A stretch of DNA of 64,000 nucleotides. It comes from Synechococcales cyanobacterium VAR_4_metabat_354 (GTDB taxonomy: Bacteria > Cyanobacteriota > Cyanobacteriia > Cyanobacteriales > Chamaesiphonaceae). The stretch lies in contig JANOQI010000046.1 of the NCBI GenBank assembly GCA_031414775.1, positions 116,116 through 180,115 on the forward strand, read 5' to 3'. The notes beneath the pieces are model-generated. The model ran no database searches and had not been told where the DNA came from. It saw only the letters and a program-made list of their open reading frames with translations. Below are positions 22,416 to 46,534 of the stretch, one piece after another (position 1 is the first letter of the stretch; each line of letters opens with the position of its first letter). A program made the position numbers and the translations under genes.

Positions 22416-25400
22416 TTAGCTATGAGTTCTATCGGCTAGTAATCGTTGAATAGTAATGGCTAGTTGCTTAAGTCGAACGGGTTTACTAAGATATTCGTTA
22501 GCTCCAGCTTTTAAGCATCTTTCTCGATCTTCTGGCATGGCCAAAGCAGTAAGGGCAATAATTGGAATATTTTTATTTTCCCTCCGAATCTCTTGAATCG
22601 CTTCTAGACCATTAACAGTGGGCATTTGAATATCCATTAAAATTAGGTGTGGAGCCTGTAATTTATATAGATCGATCGCCTCTTGTCCATTACTTGCCAA
22701 AATTAGGTGATAGCCACGACTTTCGAGGTAATTCACAAAAGTTTCAATATTGGCTTGATTATCTTCTGCTAACAAAATGAGAGGTTGCTGACGATCCGTT
22801 GTGGTCAATTTTCCTACGTCTTGTTTATGTTCTAGTAAAGATGGAATCATCTCTTCTGGTTGAATATATTGCTTAGTGTATGGTAGATGTACTGTAAAGC
22901 AACTACCTTTTCCTACTTCACTTTCTACTGTTACCCAACCGCCATGTAAATTAACAATTTGTTTTACTAAGGCTAGTCCCAATCCAGTGCCTGCATACTG
23001 GCGGCTGAGACTGCTATCAATTTGGACAAAAGGCTGAAAAAGTTTTGCTAAATCATCCGGCGCAATGCCAATACCATTATCAATGATCGAGAAACATAGA
23101 ACATTGTGAGGCTCTGCTGAATTGAACACCACTTCTTTAGCCGCTGAGCTTTCGAGGTAGGTATTTAGTAAGATCTGACCACCAGCAGGAGTGAATTTAA
23201 CAGCATTACTGAGTAAGTTAATCAATACCTGGCGGATGCGTCGTTCATCGACACAGGTTTTTTCGATACCAGGCTGACAATTACTAATTAAACGGATATC
23301 TTTTTGCTGTGCCTGTTGTCTAACAAAAGATAAGCTAGAGTTACTTAGTTGCTCAATAGCAACAGCCACTAATTCAAGTTCTAGCTTCCCGGCTTCGATT
23401 TTCGAGATTTCCAAAATATCGTTAATTAGCGACAGCAGATGTTTCCCCCCTTTTTCGATTATTTGTAGAGACTTCTGCTGACGCTCATTTATTGAGCCAA
23501 AAACTTCTTCTTGTAAACCTTCTGACATGCCCAGAATTGCATTGAGCGGAGTGCGCAATTCATGACTCATATTAGCTAAGAATGCACTCTTCGATTGATT
23601 CGCTTGATCGGCAGATTCCTTGGCTGCTTTTAGTTCGATCGTGCGTTCCGCAACTCGTTGCTCTAAAACTACTAATGATTCTTGCTGCTTGGTATAGAGG
23701 ATGGCATTCTCGATCGAGATGGCTGCTTGGGCAGTTAATAATTTTAGGAGGTCGATGCGATCATTAGTAAAGGCGCCAGATGTTAGACTATTCTCTAAAT
23801 AGATTACCCCAATTAATCTGCCCTGATTGATAATTGGACAGCACAAAATACTCAGCAATTGATGTTGCTGAATATAGAAATCGTTTGAAAATTCAGGATG
23901 CTTGTTAGCATCGTCTAATACCAATGGTTCTACACCAATTTGAACAAAGTTAACAACACTAACCGGAACATCTTGACTATCTTCTAAATTGACAGGGAGA
24001 ATAACTTGGGGTTGTTGTCCTACTTCGATCCGGGCGATTATCTGTAAGGTCTGCTTTTGTTGTAAGAGTAAAACACACTTATCAGCGCCAGCATTAGTAA
24101 TTAGAATGGTGAGTAGTGTGGCCAGGAGTTTATTCAGTTCGATGTCTTCTGAGATAGCTTGAGATGCTCTAAAGAGGGTTGATAGATCTAGTAAATTGGA
24201 ACCATTAGTAGAGAATAAAGACATTTCTGCCTTTCTCTCGGCATTAGAAATCAGAGATAGTAGTTGTGGATAACGGGCAGTGAGATCATTAACTTTAGCT
24301 GTGGCTCCCCAGTGAATGTAACAATAATAAGCCTCCGTCATATAAACCTGAGCCACTTTATCTTTGCCCCAATCTAGATAAAATTTAGCAGCCAGCTCGT
24401 TAGCGAGGGCTTCTTCATTGATAAATTGATTTACTTGAGCACCCTTAATAGCTAAATCATAGTGTTCGATCGCGATGACTCTGTTGCCCAAAACCCGCTG
24501 CTTTTCAGCTTCGATCAGATGCCACTTATGCTGATAATTAGTCGGAGCAGTTTGTGCCCACTGTGCCAGAGTGGCTTGATGGATTTCTATCTGGGTCAGG
24601 ATTTTGGCTGGTACTACTGTAATGAGTGCTAGGTGTGTCAGGGCTGTATAAAAGTGGAAAACTGGCACCAACATCATTCCTGATACTGCCAGCAAATATT
24701 GGTTGGCCTGTTGCTGGTGTGCCATTGCTGCCGGATAGTTACCAAAGTAATAGGCTAGCAATAGCTTGTAAATATAGACATAGGCACTGCCACTGAGATC
24801 ATGATCCTGTTGGTGTCTAGGTAACATCACCGTTTCATCATAGATATCTCCCTGGAGATCATCAGGTCGATTGGTGATTTCCATGAAATTCTGAACTACT
24901 TGCCTCTTAATATCTAAATGATTCCGGGCAGATTGCTGCTTCATCTGCCCTAATGCGTTGCTATAAGCTGATATTTCTTCTATCCAGTTGTCTAGTTTTA
25001 CCCCACTGAGTAAGTTAGCTTCACAGTAACAATTAATGCTGTAGCCCGCATTCAGCAAGGCTCCAGCTTCCATACCAGCTATATACCCATTTTTGAGAGT
25101 TGGCATTACTGCGCGCAAAGATTCTTGGCGATGTTGAATCCAACCACCAAAAACTAAGAGAATCGTGCTTTTGAATTCTCGGGCATCAAAGCGATCAAGC
25201 AAACTTATGGCCAATTCCCCAAAGCAATGTCCTCTTTTTACGTCACCCAGAAAAGAACTGAGTACTAGACCGTAGTTGGCATATCCTACTAAGGATGCTG
25301 GTGTATTGCCAAACTGGAGTGATAGATTCACCATCATCGCACTCATGATTGGCATCAAGCTGGGCATACCAATGAAGATAGGTGCTCCTAAAATTACGCA

Positions 25401-28232
25401 CAGTTTCATCGCCGACTGAGCATGGGGATCTTTCATGATTGGCAGATCTAAAAGATCCTGAATTGCTCGACTCTGAAGTTGGTTTGCTAGGGACTGTAAT
25501 GCTTGACCTGTCGTTGCTTCATCGGGGGAAGCCGAGAGGTTAAATCCTAATTCTTGAAGTGCTGCTCTGCCAATATCGATCGCCTTGAGCATGTCACCGT
25601 TAGCTGTTTGCGACCAGATTTGAAATTGGTAAATTTTCACTTTATCTAAAATAGTTCTAGCTTCTTGCAAGACTACCTTGCCTATCCGTTCCATGGTCTC
25701 CGGGTCGCCACTGAGGTAAGCTGTTTCGGCCGCTGCCACATACAGGCCAAGAGCCAAATCATATTGGGTTTGCCAACAGTCTGGATCCAGCAGCTCTATA
25801 CCAGTTTGCAGATAAATATTAGCAGCGGTGTAAGCAGTAGAACTCCAGGCTTTTCCACCGGCAGCTAAATTTAGTGTTGCTAGTTTTTCTCGATCGCCAG
25901 GTTGAGTAATTAATTCTTTGCCCCGATTTAAATGTCCGACAATATCAAACAGTTGCTCGTCTTGGACTGTTCCAGAAAATTTATGCTGAAGTAGTTGTCC
26001 AATTTTGAGATGAGTTACTTGTTTTTGCTGGTCGGAAACTAAGGAATAAGCCGCTTGTTGGATGCGATCATGGGGGAAACGATAAAATGGATTGGCCTGT
26101 CGCAAGGAAATAGAATAGTTTGACTCATTGATAAAGCATTGCTGATTTTCTGTTTGGGGAATAATTAAACTCTCTTTTAACAAGGGCCATAGTGCTGTGG
26201 CAGTATCATCCAGTGACCAATCCAAAACTAATGCCAGGGTTAGCAGATCGAACTGTTTTCCCATCCCAGAGGCAAATTGGAGTACTTGTTTGGTGGATAT
26301 AGGTAGTTTCTGTAATTGCAGCACCATGAACTCAACCACATCATCAGTAATCACCTGCGTAACATCCCATTGCCACTGTCGTCTTTGAGAATCAAAAAAA
26401 ATTTGCCCTTCTTGATACAAAGCTTTAAGTAGTTGATTAATAAAAAAGGGATTACCTTGAGTTTTTTGATACACCAGCGTTGTTAGGGATCTTGCTACAA
26501 ACACCGTACATTTGAGTGTGTCGGCAATTAACTGATCTATATCTGGCAGCTTTAATGGTTGCAAGCTAATTGTACTAATATTGGTTCCAGCTGCTTGGAC
26601 ATCATTCACCATTAATTTCAACGGGTGAACAGGTGAGACTTCGTGATCGCGGTAAGCACCTAATATTAGTAAATACTGTGTGTTCTGTATTAAAGTTTGT
26701 AATAACTTCAAAGATTCAGCATCTGCCCACTGCAAATCATCGAGAAATAAAACTAGGGGATGTGCGGCGGTGCTAAACACCTGTACAAACTTCTGCATCA
26801 CCAGATTAAAGTGATGTTGTGCACCACTACCTGATAATTTAGGAGGGAGAGATTGTTTACCAATAATTCTCTCTAACTCTGGAAACACCTCAATTAATAT
26901 TTGTCCATTTTCTCCCACAGCTTCCAGAATCCTAGTTTTCCACACCTGGAGTTGAGTGCTTGAGTCAGCAAGTACTTGTCTCAGTAAATTACGAAAGGCT
27001 TGCACTAATGCTGAAAATGGAATATTACGTTGGAATTGTTCGTACTTACCCTGGATAAAGTAACCTCGCTGTCCCACAATTGGCTTATGAATTTCTTGGA
27101 TGATGGCAGTTTTCCCAATTCCGGAAAACCCGGCGATGAGCATCATTTCTGTCACTCCTTTGCTTATCCTTTCAAAGGCATTTAGTAGTGTCTCAACTTC
27201 TGCTTCTCGCCCATAGAGTTTTTCTGGGATTAAGAATCGATCGCTGATGTCCTTGGTACCTAGATCAAATGCTGGGATCGTACCTGTTGTCTGTAATTGA
27301 GTCAGACAAAATTCTAGATCGTATTGTATTCCAGAGGCACTCTGGTAGCGGTTTTCCGCATTTTTAGCCATTAGTTTACTGATGATATCAGCCAAAACTA
27401 GTGGCACGGATGGTTGTAGCTGTCTAATTGGAATAGGCTGCTGGGCTAGGTGACAATGCACTAACTGCATTGGATCGTCCGTAGTAAAAGGTAACTGCCC
27501 AGTCAATAATTCATAGCAGGTTACACCAAAAGCATAAAAGTCACTGCGGTAATCAACACCCCGATTCATCCGACCAGTTTGCTCTGGCGACATGTATGCT
27601 AATGTCCCTTCTAGGGTATTGATATGATGAATGTCTTGAACTTCTCTGGGTAGTGATGAAGAAATATTAAAATCGATTAGTTTAACCTGTTTGGTTTCTG
27701 GGTTGATTAAGATGTTGGCAGGTTTTATATCTTTGTGAATTATCTGATAATGATGCAAATCATTTAAAGCGGCAGCAATTTGAATCGCTATTTGTAAAAA
27801 TGTTGTCAAATTCTGTGAATTATTACCAAATGCTTTAGTGTGATTTCGTTCTTTCCCACCCAATTTTTCAAGTACATTTTTAAGAGAAATGCCCCCATAG
27901 TCTTCCAATACTAGGGCATAAGAGTGCTGATAATCTTCAAATGCAAAGGTTTTAACAAGAGTAGGTGCATCAAAATCTTTGGCAATGGTGTATTGATGAC
28001 GAAACTGAGTAATCTCATTAAAATCAGGAAATCGATTCCGCAAAATTTTGATCACGACTGGATATTGATCATATTCTCGTATCCCTCGATAAACTAGAGT
28101 ACGAGTTCCTTGGTATATCTGTGCTGTGATTTGATATTTTGGCAATTCTGGAAAGTTATGAGACCAAAAATCAGTATTATTAGTCTCACCAAAACTACTA
28201 AATTCATTATCAATGATGAAGGAGTCTGACAT
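22416..28232 (-). CDS. Hybrid Ser/Thr kinase - AAA/STAND ATPase - GAF - histidine kinase - receiver protein
   Basis: [27 protein letters not shown] (LIGVIYLEN), [21 protein letters not shown], receiver LLAEDN..MDIQMP..KP. Confidence 0.93.
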
Positions 28233-34990: not shown

Positions 34991-37900
34991 TTAAAACCGC
35001 TGCTCAAACTCCATCAGGATCCGGCCATCACCACTAAAATTAGAAGAACCGCGCAGTAATAGCTGATTATCAAGCTGGTAACGAACACTATATTGTGGTG
35101 GATCCGAACCGGTGAGAATCTGGAATAGAGATAGCGACAGCTTGTCACTAACATTAATGCCAACTTCTCCAGCTAAACCCAGGGTAGAAGTTGTGCTACT
35201 TTTACTCTGAGAAAAACTGGGGTACAACCGGAAATCGCTTAACCCCAACAAATCCCCCACAGAAGCTTGTAAATCCCCAAAAGAACTTAGCAGTGAAGTA
35301 CCAGCTAAGCTTAGCAAACCATTGCCCACTGCTTCTTCACCAGCAGTAATCTTACCCAAACCATTGCTGAGTAGCAATAATATTTCGTCTTTACTGCGGG
35401 GTGGTTTACTCCGTAAAAATTCGGCATCATCTAGCTTCAGTTGGCTCAGCGGTAAATCTTTGATTGTTGCTTCAATCTGGACACTTTGCACTTGCCCTAA
35501 GCTAGTAGAGAAAGTATCACTGACTTCGCGGCGTTCATTTCCCACCGTTACTGGCAAGCGCGAAGTTTCTAACACTTTCGTCGATAGGTTGAGATTAACA
35601 TTGGCATCGGTACTACCATTGAATTTTGCAACATTATTGTCGCCTGTTAACCTAAACTTATTCGTAAATAAATTAAACTGGCCTCGAGGTAAATTCAACT
35701 TGCCGGTGGGTATCGGTCGATCGATCGTACCATTGAGATTCAGTTCGCCATTGGCCAGCAAACTAAGTAAGCCAAATTGTTCAAGAGCTACTTCTTCACC
35801 CAAAACCACCTTCAAATCTTGGAACTGTACCGGGTTATTTTCGTTTGATGTAGTTGTGCTAGATGAATTAGCTGTAGTTGTGTTTTGGGAGTCATCATCA
35901 CTACTGCCACTCTGGCTGGGCAAGATTACTTTACCCTTAGCTAGTTTGATATTCCCCCCAATGATAGGCTTGGTAATACTACCTTGTCCTAAAACTACAC
36001 AACCACTAACTCCTCCTTCATATTTGTCTTTGAGGTTGACCTGTACATTATCAAAAGAAACAGCTAAAGGCTGTTCTGCGGATGGAATTGGAACATTAGC
36101 TGACTTGTCTAGACAAGTTGCTGGTTGATTGAAGGATAGTAGGTTGTTAATGGGAATACTGCCTACCGCTGTCACTGGAGTATTACCATACTTACCGTTT
36201 AGCTTATCTACTTGCACTCGATCGAAGTCAAATATGACATTGCTATTGAGAGCGGTGACGTTATCCGAAAGTGAGTCAAACTTGATTACGGCATCTTGCA
36301 AGTTAGCCGATCCATTAGCACTCTTCCAGGTCAGATTTTGCTGATTGAGTCTACCTTTAGCTGCTAAGTCAACCTGACCACTACCACCCATCCACAGTGC
36401 CTGCTGTTGGGTCAAGACATCTAGCATTTTCATGCCTTGATCTTGGAGGTGAAGATTGAGAGAAACTTCATTGTTAGTTGGTGCTACCGAGGCAAAAGGT
36501 AATTGATAGGGAATGCTCCCAGAAATCTTAATCGGTGATTCACTAATCCCACTAGCAGTATTATTGGTATTTATAGTGTTATTTGCTACTACACCATTGC
36601 TATCAAACTGGAGTCGAGATTTAGCATATGAAAAATCGGTGTTGATGACCGGTACATCAGATTGATTGAACTTGCCATCAACAATTGAGGCTGTGCCAGA
36701 TAGCTGTGGATCGAACCAGCTACCACTTAGCTGTGCTTTCAGATTTATATCCCCAGAAATTTCTACTGGTAGTTGGAAAGCGGTGGAGAGCCGCTCGATC
36801 GGGAATTTTTCGACTTCGATTTGAGCCGCCTGTCGATCGATCCCAAAATCCCCTTTCACTTTGATCTTGGCATTGGTAGATAGTAAATCTAAAGCGGCTA
36901 AACTCAATGCCCCATTCTGCCATTTGCCTTGCATATTGACTTTGGCAAGTTGGTATTGATCGACAATCCACCGATCACCCTTGATATTAAAGCTGGCATA
37001 GGAGCCAGCTTGCGGTGTATCGCTAACGACAATTGTGCCAGTAAAATCTCCATCTAATTTACGCAAATCTGGTAGCGGGTTGTCCTGTTGCAGTTCTGAT
37101 TGAGCCACTTGCAATCGCTTGATTTCCGATAGTCGATCGATCTGCTCCTGAAGGCTAGTCAATTCCGAGCCAGCTGATTGGGGTTGTAAATCGCTGGCGC
37201 GGCCATAATCTCGATCGCTAAAAGGATTGATCAGATCGCTGATTGAAGAGATTTGAAAGAGGTTACTCACATCAGCTAACTGACCATGGGGCACTTGGAC
37301 TGTTACTTGATATTCAGGCTGTTTGCTAGTGGTGGATACCCGCGCCGTGATCAGATATTGGTTGCTGCCGCGCCGAAACTCTCCACCATCAACTTCCAAT
37401 AGCCCATTAACATATTTCAAACTGCTACTTTGCAGTCGATCACCAACTACATTACCAATGCGGGGCTGATCAACCACAATATTTTTGCCAGTAACGGCTC
37501 CACTAGCCAAATTAACGCTCATGCTACCACCGATCAAACCACTCAATCGATAGTTGTCAATTTGGGGCATGGGGGGCAAGAAGCTAATTAGTAAGCCCAC
37601 TGGAATATTTTGGGTGGTGACTTGCAAGTCATTGCCAACCATTTGACCTTGAGCAATGGCATCAGCTAGGCGAGCAGCGAATCGGAGGGGCTGATTATTT
37701 TCACCCAAATTCAGTTCTAGGCGATCACGCTGACCAGCTAAGAGCAAATTTAATCCCTGTCCAGGTATAGTTTGGATTTGACCAGTTAAATTTGGCTCTA
37801 GGTTCAATTTCGCTAGGCTAAGACCAGTCAAACTAATTTGACTATTCACCTGCCAGTTGGCCGGATTAAAAGAGTCAAAATTGCCTGCTATTTGACCAAC

Positions 37901-40900
37901 GGCATTGAGTTTCCCGGCTTGTAGCTGTTGACTCAACATACTATTAGGCAACAATTTAGCTACAGTAGGTAGGTCTAGCTGCTCGGCACTAAATTGCCCT
38001 TGCCAAGCTCCGTTAGCTACCTGTCCGGCCGTTAGCTGAATACGACCATTACTTAACTCTAGTTGGCCGGAGCCAGAGCCAGTTAACTGCTTGGTATCAA
38101 AGGATTTCAAGTTGCCACTTAATTCAAAATCGCTGGTCAGTTTGGCACTTTTCCAACCAGGTGGTAATGGTAATGGCAGTTGGGCGAGGGATACGGCCTT
38201 GGTTTGAAATTCACCATGCCACTGATCGCCAGTTAGTTGGAGGTTTTTAGCAACAATCTCACCACTAGGTAACCGAAAACGGGCACTGCCTTGTGCTGTT
38301 TCGACGCTGGGTTGTTGTAGTTGACCAGCTAACTGAAATTGGCCATCCATTTGAGCTGAAGATAAATTGTCAGAGAGATTCAAGGGCAACTGCTGGAGTT
38401 CGATCGAACTCAATCCAAACAAGCCCTGCCATTTACCACCATTGACTCTCAGACCCTGAGCCGTCATAACGCCCTTGCCTAGGTTTAAGCGACCATTGCC
38501 TACCAGATTCAGACTATCGGGTGTAAAGCGATCAATCTGTCCACTAGCTTGAAAATTACCAGTAACCGTGGCCGCTGACCAAGGTTTCGGCAAATCGGCA
38601 TCAATACTACCCAAGCGTAAGGCCGCTAGTGATAAATCGCTTTGCCAACGACCAGCCTGGAGCTGAAACTGCTTGGCGACTAGTTGGCCACCACCAGCAT
38701 TTTGCAGCTGACCGCTGCCAGTAGCTTGCAAGTTAGCGGCATTCATTTTTTGTAAGTCACCAGCCAGATTGAACTTACCACTCAATTTACCGCGCACGTT
38801 GGGAGTAAATTGGCTAACTTCTAAATTTTCGGGAGTAAATTCACCTTGCCATTTTCCACCGCGCAGTTTGACATTACTAGCCACCACCTGACCAATTGGC
38901 AAATGGAGAATGCCGTTACCCTGTCCCTGAATAGCGTTGGGAGTCAGCTTTTGAATATCACCATTGAGGTTGAACCGTCCACTTAGCTGGCCTTTAGTTC
39001 GGGGATTAACCTGACCCAGATCGAACCTATCGGAACTAAATTCGCCTTGCCACTTGCCCTGGGCGAGCTGGATATTTTGGCCAGTAATTTTTCCTTGACC
39101 CAGCACGATCGATCCATTCCCGATCGCTTGCACTGTCTCGGGGCTAGTCTTATTCAAATTTCCCGTTACCCGAAATTTACCGCTGAGCTTGCCAGGTAAT
39201 TTCGGATCGATCTGCGCTAGCAGCAGCTCATTAGTTTGGATATCGCTCTGCCACTGGCCTTGTCCGAGCCGGAAATTAGTAGCTTGGATGATACCAGCTT
39301 TAGTCTGGAGCTGAAGTTGACCTTGGCCTTGCAGGCTATCACTATTTCCTTTGGTGAGGCCACTGATCAGCATCTGGCCGCTGACTTGCCCCGCTAAGAA
39401 AGCCGGTAGTTTCGGCGCTTGGCCTGGGGCTGCTGGTGCCAGATTTGCTAATGTTTGACTATTGAGCTTGGGGATCTGGACATTCATCCGCCAGCGCTCT
39501 CGATCGACATTCCCCACGCCCACGATTTCCTGACCAGCAACCTTGACCCGAGCCTGTTGAATTTGGACATTACCCTGAGGCGAGATCCGCAGATTGGCAC
39601 TACCGGGATAGGCTGCTTGCGGCGCATTAATCTGGAGGTCGGTGGTTAGTTGATCGATACTACCAAAAACTTGACCAGTGACACTGGTAAGACCCATGGC
39701 GATCGGCAGCTGCTGACCATAGGTTTTCGCCAAGACATTGGCCGGTAATTGATTGCCCTGGATATTAAAGCGGAGTTGGGGCTGCCCGGTAAGAGTGATT
39801 TCACCATTGCCGATGATGGCACCGCCCAAATTTGGCAAAGCCGAAATACCACTAAGTAAGCATTTCTTGTCTTGAAGAATAAAATTACTAGCAACTTGCT
39901 TAAACTGTAATCGATCGATCTGTGCCGCTCCGATAGTTTGTACCTGACCAGAAAGAACTGGCTCGGTGAGTTTACCCTTCAAAGCTAAGTTGGCTATTAC
40001 CTGACCAGCGATCGGAACTGGCGATCGAACTTTCAGTGCTTGAGCTGCCAGCGCTACTGGTACCGGGGCGATTTGGGCTTGGAGATCGTAGCCCTGTTGG
40101 AAATCGATGGTGCCAGCAATCCTCCCAGGTAATTGACCGTAAAGTGTAGTTACATTTTGGAGCTGCACGGCTTGGGGCAAAATCTTGACCGTGCCACTAG
40201 CCTGTTGAAACAACTGTGGCACCTGATTAACTTGAAAAGTAGCTTGGTGAACTTGAACTGTCCCCTGCACCACTAGTGGCTTTTGCGGCTGGATATCGAT
40301 GTTAATATTGCCATCTACTAGGCCGCTTTGAAAATCCACTGCCGGAATTTTCATTAGACCCCGCGCTTGAGCAACATTAAGCGCTTGACCATTAATTTCT
40401 ACATGCGTAGCTTGAGTAACTAAAGAGCTATTACCCTTGATCGCAATTGTGGATTTTTGATTATTTTTAGTACCTTCTAAACTATCAACTTGCCCAGTGC
40501 CATTAAAGTTGACTACCTGAATTTTGCCATCTTTACTTTGAAAATTAGTGCTCAGATCGGTGTCTCGAAAACTGATTGGCTTTTTAGTACTAAATGGCAC
40601 TACCGTGCCCCGGGCTTTCTGAATATGGACAGCCTGAATTTCGGTTTTTATTAATCCCGGTTTTTCGGGTGGTTGAGTAGGGATTTTCAGCCAGTTGCCC
40701 TGGGCATCTTGTTCTAAATATAAATCTGGTTCCAGAATAGTAATATCTGGCTTTAGTGTGCGCTGCCAAAGGACTGCAAGGGGGTCAAAACGGATGTTAA
40801 CGCCCTTAATGGCAACTTTACTGGCACTGGTTCGATTAGCGGCCAGACTGGATGCCCCAAAATTAATTTCGTTGAGACCGATATTTTGAAGTTGGCCGAG

Positions 40901-41125
40901 GCTGACATCTCGATCGAGAGATTTACTCAGTTCCTTAGCGATTGTGGGGGATAAATTTCGGGCAACCCAGGTGCTTAGTCCTAAAAAGCTGATCGCCCCA
41001 ACTCCCAGCACACTCGCCGTCGCAATACCACCAATTTTCCACCAATTTCGATCAGCAGGAGACGATCGATCGGCACTACTATTTTCTGGATTAGGGGAAT
41101 TGACTTGTTTACGGAAGATGCTCAT
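34991..41125 (-). CDS. tamB: Translocation/assembly module TamB (AsmA-like) protein
   Basis: 2044 aa, N-terminal TM anchor, all-beta Gly-rich body, DUF490-type C-terminus (SKPPRSKDEILLLL, YSVRYQL, MEFEQRF). Confidence 0.88.
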   Translation of the reverse strand: MSIFRKQVNSPNPENSSADRSSPADRNWWKIGGIATASVLGVGAISFLGLSTWVARNLSPTIAKELSKSLDRDVSLGQLQNIGLNEINFGASSLAANRTSASKVAIKGVNIRFDPLAVLWQRTLKPDITILEPDLYLEQDAQGNWLKIPTQPPEKPGLIKTEIQAVHIQKARGTVVPFSTKKPISFRDTDLSTNFQSKDGKIQVVNFNGTGQVDSLEGTKNNQKSTIAIKGNSSLVTQATHVEINGQALNVAQARGLMKIPAVDFQSGLVDGNINIDIQPQKPLVVQGTVQVHQATFQVNQVPQLFQQASGTVKILPQAVQLQNVTTLYGQLPGRIAGTIDFQQGYDLQAQIAPVPVALAAQALKVRSPVPIAGQVIANLALKGKLTEPVLSGQVQTIGAAQIDRLQFKQVASNFILQDKKCLLSGISALPNLGGAIIGNGEITLTGQPQLRFNIQGNQLPANVLAKTYGQQLPIAMGLTSVTGQVFGSIDQLTTDLQINAPQAAYPGSANLRISPQGNVQIQQARVKVAGQEIVGVGNVDRERWRMNVQIPKLNSQTLANLAPAAPGQAPKLPAFLAGQVSGQMLISGLTKGNSDSLQGQGQLQLQTKAGIIQATNFRLGQGQWQSDIQTNELLLAQIDPKLPGKLSGKFRVTGNLNKTSPETVQAIGNGSIVLGQGKITGQNIQLAQGKWQGEFSSDRFDLGQVNPRTKGQLSGRFNLNGDIQKLTPNAIQGQGNGILHLPIGQVVASNVKLRGGKWQGEFTPENLEVSQFTPNVRGKLSGKFNLAGDLQKMNAANLQATGSGQLQNAGGGQLVAKQFQLQAGRWQSDLSLAALRLGSIDADLPKPWSAATVTGNFQASGQIDRFTPDSLNLVGNGRLNLGKGVMTAQGLRVNGGKWQGLFGLSSIELQQLPLNLSDNLSSAQMDGQFQLAGQLQQPSVETAQGSARFRLPSGEIVAKNLQLTGDQWHGEFQTKAVSLAQLPLPLPPGWKSAKLTSDFELSGNLKSFDTKQLTGSGSGQLELSNGRIQLTAGQVANGAWQGQFSAEQLDLPTVAKLLPNSMLSQQLQAGKLNAVGQIAGNFDSFNPANWQVNSQISLTGLSLAKLNLEPNLTGQIQTIPGQGLNLLLAGQRDRLELNLGENNQPLRFAARLADAIAQGQMVGNDLQVTTQNIPVGLLISFLPPMPQIDNYRLSGLIGGSMSVNLASGAVTGKNIVVDQPRIGNVVGDRLQSSSLKYVNGLLEVDGGEFRRGSNQYLITARVSTTSKQPEYQVTVQVPHGQLADVSNLFQISSISDLINPFSDRDYGRASDLQPQSAGSELTSLQEQIDRLSEIKRLQVAQSELQQDNPLPDLRKLDGDFTGTIVVSDTPQAGSYASFNIKGDRWIVDQYQLAKVNMQGKWQNGALSLAALDLLSTNAKIKVKGDFGIDRQAAQIEVEKFPIERLSTAFQLPVEISGDINLKAQLSGSWFDPQLSGTASIVDGKFNQSDVPVINTDFSYAKSRLQFDSNGVVANNTINTNNTASGISESPIKISGSIPYQLPFASVAPTNNEVSLNLHLQDQGMKMLDVLTQQQALWMGGSGQVDLAAKGRLNQQNLTWKSANGSANLQDAVIKFDSLSDNVTALNSNVIFDFDRVQVDKLNGKYGNTPVTAVGSIPINNLLSFNQPATCLDKSANVPIPSAEQPLAVSFDNVQVNLKDKYEGGVSGCVVLGQGSITKPIIGGNIKLAKGKVILPSQSGSSDDDSQNTTTANSSSTTTSNENNPVQFQDLKVVLGEEVALEQFGLLSLLANGELNLNGTIDRPIPTGKLNLPRGQFNLFTNKFRLTGDNNVAKFNGSTDANVNLNLSTKVLETSRLPVTVGNERREVSDTFSTSLGQVQSVQIEATIKDLPLSQLKLDDAEFLRSKPPRSKDEILLLLSNGLGKITAGEEAVGNGLLSLAGTSLLSSFGDLQASVGDLLGLSDFRLYPSFSQSKSSTTSTLGLAGEVGINVSDKLSLSLFQILTGSDPPQYSVRYQLDNQLLLRGSSNFSGDGRILMEFEQRF

Positions 41126-41591: not shown

Positions 41592-42275
41592 TTACTTTAC
41601 TAAGCCAGGCAAGAACTTTAGGCCAGCAGAAGAACCGGTGTAAGTATAAGCCGTGTTAGTAGAATTCACAGTGGCGCTACTAGAACCTTTACCAGTAGCA
41701 TTGTGAGTAGCACTGGCTTTACCGCTAACATTGAGTGAAATATTGCTGCTGCTGCCGCTAGCATTTTCTTTAGAAGATTGACTAGATAGGGAAGCATTCA
41801 AAGATTTTTTGTATTTTTCAACAGTTACATCTTTGGAAGACTGTGTAGAACCAGACTTATATTGATTCTGGTTAGCTGCAAATGCGATAGCAGCTTCTTG
41901 CTGATATGTACCAGCAGCAGTGTATTCATGAGAATTCTGTTCAGCTGTATGCATTGTAGTAGCTGCGTAACCAAAGCTTACCGGGGTGCTGAAACCATCA
42001 GCATTAGCTGTAGTGCCATTTTTGCTGCTAGAAGAATTAGCCTTGGCTGAGGTTTCGCCAGTGGCGACAGCTGCCGAAAGTTCACTAATGCCAGTACCAC
42101 TACCACTAGCATTGCCACCAGGAGTAATGGAGAACTGACCTTGAGTGTCAGAGTGCTTGTTGAATTTGATTGATACAGCAGCAGCAGTAGAACCAGTGTC
42201 AGCTAAGGCAGCGATGGGGCTGAAGATAGCGCCAGCAGCAATAACGATCAAAGCAATTTTAGTAGAGAAAGACAT
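41592..42275 (-). CDS. Secreted Ser/Thr/Ala-rich protein A (paralog of 45457-46137)
   Basis: Sec signal (ALA-DTG), no Cys, near-identical N-terminal domain to the paralog. Confidence 0.85.
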   Translation of the reverse strand: MSFSTKIALIVIAAGAIFSPIAALADTGSTAAAVSIKFNKHSDTQGQFSITPGGNASGSGTGISELSAAVATGETSAKANSSSSKNGTTANADGFSTPVSFGYAATTMHTAEQNSHEYTAAGTYQQEAAIAFAANQNQYKSGSTQSSKDVTVEKYKKSLNASLSSQSSKENASGSSSNISLNVSGKASATHNATGKGSSSATVNSTNTAYTYTGSSAGLKFLPGLVK

Positions 42276-42842
42276 GATTTTTATGTTCCTAGTTTTCAGT
42301 AAGTAATTGTGTGTTCTAGAGAGAAGTGTTTTAGCTCTAGCTCGTTAATCAAGCAGACTCTTAAAGCAATGGCTTCATCCTAGTTTTAGATTAGCCATTT
42401 CATTAGGTCTGGTTAGTGAGACTAACAGATGTTTCGGTGGAGTTTCTGAATCTGCTCACCGAGTTTTATTTTGCAATTTATTACACCAAATTTAAAATAT
42501 TTAAGGTGTAGCTACTTGCTATAAAGCTCAGTCAGAAGTGATTTATTCTTTCCACATTTCTAATATTACAGGTTGATTTCAGGGCTGGCAATAGAAAAAT
42601 ATTTCTTAAGTAATAAGACGGACATTTGTCAGCAACAATACTAAAATAGACAGAAAATAAAAAATTGTGAGTTAATACAAATTTCGTACTAATAAATAAA
42701 CAACGTTCATAGTCCAATCTCTGAAAGCTTTGTAGATTGGGTAATCAAAAATCCTAAATGCTTGGTTTTCACGAAGCTAACAATGGCTTTTATCTATCAA
42801 TTTAGATTGCTTGAATAAATAAATATGTAGATGACCAATTAA

Positions 42843-42904: not shown

Positions 42905-45277
42905 CTAAAATTGATGACGAAAAGAAACGTTAAAAGTATTGTCACGGAAAATATTTGCCTTCGTACCTAGTGTCCGACGAAAATCTATTTCCGCTGCATT
43001 CCAGCTCATATAAATCTTAGAATTCGATTCTGGATCGACGACAAAGCTCAGACTAGCACCAAAAGGAGATGTTGATACACTCTGGTCAAAGGCCGTATAA
43101 AAAGCCCCCAGGTTCAGACGATCATTGATTTTCCAGCCAACATTAAACAGTGTTTTACTTTCAACAGCATCTGGTAGCAAATTACCAACAAACTGCGTAC
43201 CGCCCACGGAAACATTACCAAAATTAGCAGTTACACCCACATTGACAAAACTTTGAGCTGATCGTACCGGCAGAGACTGAATGGTCATTAAGCCATCAGC
43301 AACATAGTTAGCATTGACTCCAATTACCAAATTGTCCCGGTTATTATCACCAAGAGAGATCGCCTGAGTAGCATTAGCAAATAGTTGAGTATAATGTTCA
43401 GGATCAGGATTAAGATAACCAACCCCACCCGCGCTAAAACTAAAACCGTAGGGATTAACGATCGAGTAATCAGTCCCGATATAGGCTTTGATATCTTGGG
43501 TGGTTTGGGGTTGCAGACCCACATTGAAAATCGTACCGGCAAAATACCGCCATAAAGTATTTTCAGTCAGACTAGTACCGGTAAAACTGATGTGTGGGTA
43601 ATAGTCTGTGCGTTGACGAATGGTTTCTACATCGTATCGATCGACATCCCGGTTATAAACCGTAACATAACCTTGGGCATAGGCATTTTGTAACGCCCCG
43701 GAGGTAAAGTTCACACCATTGAGATTGATATCGACGGGAACGTTCCCACCCTCACCGCCACCACTATTCACGATAACCGGTGCGCGGAGAGTTTTATAGT
43801 AATAGTCTCGTTCAAATTTTCGCTCAATGACTGGAGATAGACCGATCCATAAAGCCTGATGACTAGCCCCCGGCGGAATTCTCGGGTCATCGCCCCGACT
43901 AGCTGCTGAACCGGTTCCCCCTTGATAAACAGTCAGGCTCTGATCGGGAATGCGGAGCGCATTGGCTGCCCGAAAAAGATTGGGATTAACTACAATTTGG
44001 GCACCCGGTTGACCAGGAGCAATGTTAAGCTGAAATTTGGGCAAGACTTGCCCGAGGGCTTGTACCGCCAAATTAACTAGCTGATTGCGATCGCCATTAA
44101 TATAGTTGACAGATCTGATGGTGCGGCCCAGAGTTGATTCTACACCGTTGGTGGCAAAATCTTGGTTTAACCGGGTATGGTTCACGGCAATCTCGGTACT
44201 GAGATCTTCTCGCCGTCCCCCAGTCAAAATGGGAGGTGGGGCACCTTCTGTTTTGACAATACCCACTGCTGGAAAATATAAATCTAGTCCATAACTTGAT
44301 TTATTCTTGCCATTAGCGCCACCTTGAAATCCTGGTTTTCTGATCGCCGTTACCGATGCTGGGGAAATTACATCACCGAATTGGGAGGTCACTTTAACGT
44401 TAAATGGCTGCAATTTGCGTTGATCGATCACACTGTCGTCAATTGTCAGCCCCGGCAGATAAGTACAAACTCGCCCAGAATTGTCTAAACAGTTGGCATC
44501 TAAACTAATTTGTTGACGTACACCCAGTAGGGTTTGGGGCTGCGATACGGAAACAGCAATATCATGACTTTTACTAATACTACGCGCTCCACCTACTTCC
44601 AATTGGGTGTTGACTCTTAATACCCGGTCAGCAGTAACACTTTGAATATTCTTGGCTTGAAACAGTTGATAAATATTAAAATTGAGATCACTCGTCCGAA
44701 AATTCCCCGACTCATAACCAGATTTGACGTTGGTTGTACTTAAATGGGATACCCGATCGCCATTCAGCACAAATTGGGTTGAAAACGGATCAACTTCTTG
44801 CGGTGCTAGTTCCTGTGGCGTGATTAGATAACGGGGGTCTTGAGATGATTCCTGCTGGGGCGAAATAGGTGCAGATTTTAAAGGAACGGCTGGTGCATTA
44901 CTAGGAGTTGGAATTAATATGGATCCTAAATTGGAACTTAGCGGCCTAATCTCGGTACTTTGTGGCGATATAATACTTGGCAGATTAGGAATAGAAATAG
45001 AAGGGATCGGTATTGCTATTTGAGCAATTTTGATAGGGCGATCAAGATCATTTTCTTCCACGCTAATATTTTGTTTAGCTTCTCGATCGAATGCCCCCAA
45101 TTTTATTAGTTGGGTAGAAGATATGTCATCAAAGTCAAACAAATCCTGATTAGTCTTGGTTGCTTGCTCATATGCTTGAACACCACTACAAACAAATAAA
45201 GAATAACTAGTAACTGCGACGAAGTAATAGACCAACTTATGTACGTTCTTAAGAGAATCTAATAGTCGCAAATACAT
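42905..45277 (-). CDS. Large predicted outer-membrane beta-barrel protein of unknown family
   Basis: Signal peptide (VQA), Pro/Ser linker, CLDNSGRVC Cys pair, many amphipathic strands, C-terminal FNVSFRHQF beta-signal. Confidence 0.75.
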   Translation of the reverse strand: MYLRLLDSLKNVHKLVYYFVAVTSYSLFVCSGVQAYEQATKTNQDLFDFDDISSTQLIKLGAFDREAKQNISVEENDLDRPIKIAQIAIPIPSISIPNLPSIISPQSTEIRPLSSNLGSILIPTPSNAPAVPLKSAPISPQQESSQDPRYLITPQELAPQEVDPFSTQFVLNGDRVSHLSTTNVKSGYESGNFRTSDLNFNIYQLFQAKNIQSVTADRVLRVNTQLEVGGARSISKSHDIAVSVSQPQTLLGVRQQISLDANCLDNSGRVCTYLPGLTIDDSVIDQRKLQPFNVKVTSQFGDVISPASVTAIRKPGFQGGANGKNKSSYGLDLYFPAVGIVKTEGAPPPILTGGRREDLSTEIAVNHTRLNQDFATNGVESTLGRTIRSVNYINGDRNQLVNLAVQALGQVLPKFQLNIAPGQPGAQIVVNPNLFRAANALRIPDQSLTVYQGGTGSAASRGDDPRIPPGASHQALWIGLSPVIERKFERDYYYKTLRAPVIVNSGGGEGGNVPVDINLNGVNFTSGALQNAYAQGYVTVYNRDVDRYDVETIRQRTDYYPHISFTGTSLTENTLWRYFAGTIFNVGLQPQTTQDIKAYIGTDYSIVNPYGFSFSAGGVGYLNPDPEHYTQLFANATQAISLGDNNRDNLVIGVNANYVADGLMTIQSLPVRSAQSFVNVGVTANFGNVSVGGTQFVGNLLPDAVESKTLFNVGWKINDRLNLGAFYTAFDQSVSTSPFGASLSFVVDPESNSKIYMSWNAAEIDFRRTLGTKANIFRDNTFNVSFRHQF

Positions 45278-45456: not shown

Positions 45457-46137
45457 CTACTTGACGATGGCAGGAAGAAATTTCAAGCCAGTAGCAGGAC
45501 CACTATAGTGATAAGTAGTTTTAGTTTCTTTGCCAGTGGATGCCGTAGAGCCACTACCAGTCTCATTCTTGGTAGCACTTGCTTTGAGGCTAGCATTAAG
45601 TGAAACGCTGCCATTGCTGCCACTAGCACTTTGGCTAGCAGATTGCTTGTCAACAGATGCATTCAAAGACTTTTTCTTGATTGCCAGGGTTGCATCTTTG
45701 GTAGATTGTCCAGAACTGTGGTGATATTGGCTTTGATTAGCCGCAAATGCTAAAGCAGCTTGCTCTTCGTATTTACTGGCGGCAGTATACTGATACTTGC
45801 TTTGGTCAGACGTATTGGCTGTGACTGCTTCATAACCAAACTCTACAGGAGCGCTCCAACCATCAGCATTAGCAGTAGTACCATGCTTGCTGCTAGAAGA
45901 ATCAGCCTTAGCTGAGGTTTCACCAGTCGCTACAGCCGCTGAAAGCTCACTGATGCCAGTGCCACCACCACTAGCATTACCACCAGGAGTAATGGAGAAC
46001 TTACCAGCAGTAGCAGAATGGCTATTAAACTTGATGGATACAGCAGCAGCGGTAGAACCAGTATCAGCGAAAGCAGCAACTGGGCTGAAAATAGCAGCAG
46101 TGGCGATAATTACAGCGATTTTAGTAGAAAAAGACAT
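45457..46137 (-). CDS. Secreted Ser/Thr/Ala-rich protein B (paralog of 41592-42275)
   Basis: Sec signal (AFA-DTG), collinear with paralog A with no indels in the mature region. Confidence 0.85.
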   Translation of the reverse strand: MSFSTKIAVIIATAAIFSPVAAFADTGSTAAAVSIKFNSHSATAGKFSITPGGNASGGGTGISELSAAVATGETSAKADSSSSKHGTTANADGWSAPVEFGYEAVTANTSDQSKYQYTAASKYEEQAALAFAANQSQYHHSSGQSTKDATLAIKKKSLNASVDKQSASQSASGSNGSVSLNASLKASATKNETGSGSTASTGKETKTTYHYSGPATGLKFLPAIVK

Positions 46138-46534
46138 ATCGTTGATCTTCCTAATTTTTGGTTAGTAGTGTATGATTTGAGGCAAGTGTTTTAGATCTAG
46201 CTCGTTAACCAAGCAACCCCTAAAAACGATGGTTTTTAGTTCCAATTTCGGATCTACCTTCGTCTTTAGACTGGTAGGTGAAGTTGATGGGCTGTTTTGT
46301 TGCAATAATTCAGAGCTATTCGTTGACTGTTTTTGCATGTAGCTGGTTGCTTGGTGTCTCTGTGCAGAGCCATCTGGGTGCTTCCATGTTTCAATACTAT
46401 TCACTAGCTTTTGGTATGGCAAGAGAGCAATCTGGCTTTAAGCGATAAGACGGATAGAGCGTCAGCAACAATACTCAGGCTAGCTAAAACCATTGCCGAC
46501 GAATTAAGTAAACTGAAAATTATCGCTATAAACA

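Follow-up and report, generated by a model that had tools for sequence, protein, structure and literature searches.

Chaperone-usher operons encode several secreted paralogous subunits together with one large outer-membrane barrel. Among described systems, the cyanobacterial tubular (CT) pilus known from Microcystis aeruginosa comes nearest to the locus analyzed here. According to the accessible part of its description, the pilin MrpC (PDB 9BTQ) is secreted and consists of long antiparallel hairpins, which are packed side by side with their strands close to the axis, a paralogous pilin-like gene is present, an outer-membrane porin (BH695_0836) has been proposed as the assembly platform, and no chaperone is named (PMC12397347). 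The locus in question lies in a 64,000-nucleotide stretch of contig JANOQI010000046.1 of Synechococcales cyanobacterium VAR_4_metabat_354, referred to below as the window. On the minus strand of this stretch, the genes of two secreted paralogs, A (227 amino acids (aa), 41592..42275) and B (226 aa, 45457..46137, 67% identical to A), flank the gene of a 790-aa outer-membrane beta-barrel protein of an unnamed family (42905..45277), the B gene being located 3 kb upstream of A. None of the three proteins matches a Pfam or NCBIfam family, and A and B are the only subunit copies in the genome. Since the genes of two hairpin subunits flank that of an outer-membrane barrel, A and B probably build a surface fibre or a stalk, these two readings being taken together; the best reading is that they are pilin-like, in a two-family surface system without earlier description.

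Protein A begins with a putative Sec-type signal peptide, as read from its sequence (residues 1–25, ending in ALA; 42201..42275, minus strand), followed by a conserved head of short Ala/Ser/Gly/Val strands (residues 26–98; 41982..42200, minus strand) and a predicted long antiparallel beta-hairpin of approximately 55 residues per strand (residues 99–214; 41634..41981, minus strand) in the direct register i + j = 313, with a Lys-rich tip at residues 154–158 (41802..41816, minus strand). The corresponding hairpin of B (residues 98–213; 45499..45846, minus strand) has register 311 by alignment to A. An earlier note on this DNA had proposed such a hairpin from pairs of hydrophobic residues at window positions 41640–41975 (A residues 101–212). 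Every residue pair quoted there is present in A and B, A indeed lacks proline at residues 99–222 (prolines are found at 20, 52, 98, and 223 in A and at 19, 51, 97, 214, and 222 in B), and the paralogs align without gaps over the hairpin, as had been stated (62 of 116 residues identical, and 64 of 73 in the head). However, the symmetry is not above chance in one sequence. Two of the quoted pairs involve Ala; when only FYWILVM residues are counted, A has five pairs at register 313 and six at 311, B has four at 311 and five at 309, and the best hydrophobic register does not exceed that of shuffled sequences (p = 0.11 for A, p = 0.48 for B). The symmetry becomes significant across homologs.

The homolog search gave 134 proteins; among the best 120 of the 134, which were listed, the homologs with an organism name belong to Chamaesiphon. 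Altogether, 145 distinct subunits were gathered, from which 135 with both anchor motifs (equivalents of F101 and Y212) were kept and 10 dropped, and 30 representatives were chosen at <50% arm similarity. The anchor-to-anchor span among the 135 homologs is 61–312 residues, a fivefold variation in hairpin length, which at 0.33 nm per residue corresponds to 18 nm in A and 10–52 nm in the family. Mean-field direct coupling analysis (DCA; 120 sequences, effective number 58) revealed a dominant anti-diagonal at 313 (z = 10.5) with side bands at 311 and 315, that is, the one long anti-diagonal predicted by the earlier note, at the register proposed for A. The best parallel diagonal (z = 5.5) is at near-neighbor spacing. 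With the indel-rich tip removed (115 of 120 rows), register 313 kept z = 6.8, to which both faces contributed; none of 2000 column permutations went above 4.6. In the 30 representatives, there are 114 opposite-charge pairs at the register versus 23–53 at 24 other offsets, and residue-pair mutual information also peaks there. Hydrophobic pairs peak two residues off register (87; null maximum 43.6), as expected of diagonal contacts, and one inherited motif supplies a third of this signal. Within single proteins, 32 of 33 charged residues are paired in L017 and 34 of 39 in L006; charge pairing was significant (p < 0.05) in six of the 11 proteins tested, A and B not being among these six.

In addition to coevolution and charge pairing, a single long antiparallel hairpin is supported by paired arm-length changes and by the turn position. 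Homologs L018 and L020 have a common tip motif at the exact midpoint, and their arms differ as 126/126 and 156/156 residues, the growth having occurred through separate internal insertions. A Gly turn dipeptide lies no more than three residues from the midpoint in 16 of the 30 representatives (3.0 expected), and the tip turn is KG, NG, or DG in many homologs. Proline accounts for 11 of 17,406 arm residues, eight of these 11 being at the tip. The faces of the hairpin are unequal (21% and 8% hydrophobic), and the arms contain 21% Ser, 13% Ala, 12% Asn, and 10% Thr. The same homolog evidence supports the Lys-rich tip and the projection of the hairpin from the conserved head. The outcomes named in the earlier note as contradicting its proposal (a solenoid, a short-strand sandwich, disorder, or the lack of a long anti-diagonal) did not appear. 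According to these sequence comparisons, the long hairpin is very probably real.

One subfamily (the L006–L008 subunit, L017, L021, and L040) carries an identical repeat block in direct orientation in both arms; the unit therefore appears to pair antiparallel with its own copy. P0120 (span 61) may have arisen through a deletion between repeats of this kind or may reflect a collapsed assembly.

The AlphaFold2 model of A has a mean predicted local distance difference test score (pLDDT) of 48 and bears out the proposed hairpin in part: a head of short strands was built, with long strands only at residues 100–125 and 188–213, at the base of the hairpin, but the distal half was not. The model contains one short helix (residues 216–221). 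Foldseek analysis of this low-confidence model gave no significant fold match; aerolysin-type pores lead the list with E = 2.7 and a template modeling (TM) score of 0.15. Profiles of the long, short, and mixed subunits gave no PDB sequence match (E up to 1–10).

As for the outer-membrane barrel, its AlphaFold model (pLDDT 94) has about 18–20 strands and, beyond the barrel, two strand pairs of approximately 40 residues plus a Cys-containing cap. The barrel gene is adjacent to a subunit gene in 28 of 34 subunit loci, the other six having ≤612 downstream bases. Barrel and subunit are the only widely recurring genes among 43 neighborhoods, and the barrels of long-hairpin systems group as one clade. 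Judging from this gene order, the subunit and the barrel are very likely partners. A second barrel copy (643-aa frame; G000:C36:98633-100564, minus strand; L100:4239-6158), also matched in G001 and G007, is an orphan: it has no subunit neighbor, and both putative outward extensions are deleted in it.

Other cyanobacteria and plasmids of Cereibacter encode related barrels next to short subunits, which have the same head and mostly a very short hairpin where the long family has a long one. At 8 of 20 loci, the barrel gene is preceded by a tandem array of 3–5 short paralogs. Other genes were also seen near these systems. A protein of ~300 aa with an N-terminus that by eye resembles a helix-turn-helix regulator occurs near short-subunit systems in 9 of 43 neighborhoods (L083:9223-10131 and eight other loci). 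In Cereibacter operons, the barrel is followed by a third secreted protein of ~120 aa with four Cys and no Pfam match (L079:8950-9321, L080:9020-9385), and L080 adjoins a cellulose synthase gene. In L062, L063, L071, and L072, the gene of a secreted protein of ~560 aa with RTX-like Gly-Asp repeats separates the short-subunit gene from the barrel gene.

There is about an even chance that A and B are subunits with length-tunable hairpins in a chaperone-free, barrel-anchored surface fibre. The subunits would cross the inner membrane by Sec and then traverse the barrel or dock on its outward extensions. Polymerization would proceed without a chaperone, the small-residue head strands pairing edge to edge. 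Each hairpin would stand out from the head and pack alongside its neighbors via the more hydrophobic face; we infer such lateral packing because so long a two-stranded ribbon would probably not be stable by itself. The product may be a sheathed or tubular fibre attaching to surfaces or other cells, and paired insertions in both arms would tune the hairpin length. More tentatively, a new pilus or stalk class may extend across cyanobacteria and Cereibacter plasmids, in which a barrel with outward hairpin extensions would nucleate chaperone-free assembly. The loop tips of the head would accept hairpin extensions, and the lineage with as many as 156 residues per strand (~50 nm) may represent a tunable molecular ruler.

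Several points weigh against the fibre. The fibre, with its expression and its localization at the surface, is a prediction from the genes. In most of the long-hairpin loci a single subunit gene is seen, and a finite complex would fit this equally well. In the A model, residues 137–203 have pLDDT < 50, residues 128–135 form a helix, and the distal half is not a hairpin. Hydrophobic pairs pick no single register in 10 long representatives (18 at −2, 19 at +1), and charge pairing is non-significant in A (p = 0.07), B (p = 1.0), and three others of the 11 proteins. Indels symmetric about the tip, anticipated in the earlier note, are seen in the matched arms of L018 and L020, but P0112 is missing 33 residues from one arm only. 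As the homologs are related, the shuffle tests overstate significance; the separate lines of evidence nonetheless agree. The long and short subunits are linked through their heads with moderate strength (hhalign 93.5%, to which the signal peptide contributes in part), A itself scores only E = 2.6 on the seed profile, and the strand pattern is the sole basis for the putative outward direction of the barrel extensions.

The finite complex would be a stalk, in which a few subunits form a closed ring on the barrel and their hairpins together make up one long polar beta-barrel or needle, hairpin length (10–52 nm) serving as a ruler for the stand-off of the tip from the cell, for example, through a sheath. 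Such a stalk is possible but rather unlikely, since the relatives outside the long family mostly have short hairpins and often occur as arrays of 3–5 paralogs, arrays of several paralogs being the usual appearance of a pilus operon, and the nearly equal strength of side bands 311 and 315 is what one strand pair would give. The adjacency of tamB in 5 of 43 neighborhoods and a hairpin length of 10–50 nm, which matches the scale of the cyanobacterial envelope (10–50 nm), would suit subunits remaining in the periplasm as a strut connecting the outer-membrane barrel with either the cell wall or the inner membrane. This is improbable: the extensions lost in the orphan barrel sit on the long-loop side, the subunits have no peptidoglycan-binding or membrane anchor, and paralogs form arrays.

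It is also hardly probable that the subunits are amyloid-like or disordered matrix proteins with short cross-beta strands in a Ser/Asn/Ala-rich region and a symmetry arising from repeat duplication. The richness of the arms in Ser, Ala, Asn, and Thr, the 10- and 14-residue repeats of the long forms, and the low pLDDT speak for this, but the anti-diagonal is stronger than every parallel diagonal, insertions are matched between the arms, and the genome contains no CsgG. The earlier note had drawn an analogy with beta-pore-forming toxins. A hairpin inserting into a target membrane is very improbable, despite the place of aerolysin-type pores in the Foldseek list, because the tip is charged (on average 7.4 charges per 25 residues) and offers no membrane-facing hydrophobic face: its better face has ≤6 of ~13 hydrophobic residues, and the best alternating hydrophobic window, 179–187, is away from the tip. 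The genomic context is a barrel-plus-subunit operon, and the analogy is not supported as a function. The hairpins may still line a polar barrel or tube wall, or make up a ribbon-like fibre.

In the window, the neighbors of the system are TamB and RNA methyltransferase genes. The TamB-family gene (2044 aa; 34991–41125, minus strand) is directly downstream of A; its product could aid barrel insertion or be a bystander. A 1938-aa open reading frame (22416–28232, minus strand) lies in a stretch of low G + C content (37–43%). A conserved non-coding motif is located upstream of A (42336..42348, minus strand), and an identical 13-mer, likewise conserved, precedes B (46196..46208, minus strand). Before long-subunit genes (34 upstream regions), the motifs form an imperfect inverted pair ~60 bases apart with a recurring C-A mismatch, the second arm being 63–82 bases ahead of the start codon. 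The pair has no Rfam match and is a candidate 5′ leader stem or paired operator.

The subunit and barrel families, neither of which has a Pfam, NCBIfam, or PDB match, are found together across cyanobacteria and also in Alphaproteobacteria. If fibre-forming, they would represent a surface-appendage system not found in the literature search, which listed no publication about either of the two families (its coverage of subscription journals was mostly lacking). The host organisms build stream biofilms and soil crusts. To our knowledge, the long forms would rank among the longest single beta-hairpins. Because natural variants have 30–156 residues per strand, with near-complete cross-strand charge pairing in some, the rules of very long two-stranded ribbons become directly testable, and a tunable nanoscale spacer is on offer.

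Comparison with known systems showed that the class III signal with a retained hydrophobic helix, typical of type IV pilins, is absent from the subunits, in which an AxA-type cleaved signal is followed by beta strands with no Pfam match; a lipobox is absent from all 135 homologs. Curli (CsgA/CsgG) and Fap are similar in having secreted small-residue, Asn/Gln-rich subunits and a dedicated outer-membrane channel, but the contacts here lie along a single long anti-diagonal instead of forming stacks of short repeats, and at least two QxGxxN motifs occur in only 4 of 135 homologs. With chaperone-usher pili (FimA/PapA, PapD, PapC), the locus shares paralogous secreted subunits and one large barrel. 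However, PapD_N was not detected in the genome (99.96% complete; the control was positive in E. coli), no chaperone-sized gene recurs in the 43 neighborhoods, the barrel has no Usher match and a TM score of only 0.24 to PapC, and the low-confidence A model is not an immunoglobulin fold. One long hairpin leaving a compact head is likewise a property of the phi29 lower collar, the aerolysin and anthrax PA pore stems, and the T4 gp37 needle. These ring-oligomer hairpin barrels appear only as sub-threshold fold neighbors, without a significant structural or sequence match; the subunits lack the amphipathic membrane-spanning hairpin tip of aerolysin-type toxins and a Pfam match to the aerolysin/ETX-MTX2 core fold, and His-x-His is present in only 4 of 135 homologs. 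Such barrels are roughly 10–17 nm long, less than the longest hairpins of the family with their 156 residues per strand.

As far as the accessible part of its description allows, the CT pilus differs in pilin family and gene cluster. No MrpC/TEK-like homology was found (no NCBIfam match and no PDB sequence match, in a copy that may lack 9BTQ), and none of the CT-cluster genes (O-GlcNAc transferase, FkbM, adhesin) recurs beside barrel and subunit in the 43 neighborhoods. The CT pilin has a helix-turn-helix at its C-terminus; the low-confidence A model has the one short helix. At the same time, the two systems are alike in long hairpins, a paralogous subunit, and an outer-membrane barrel, the porin being likened by its proposed role alone.
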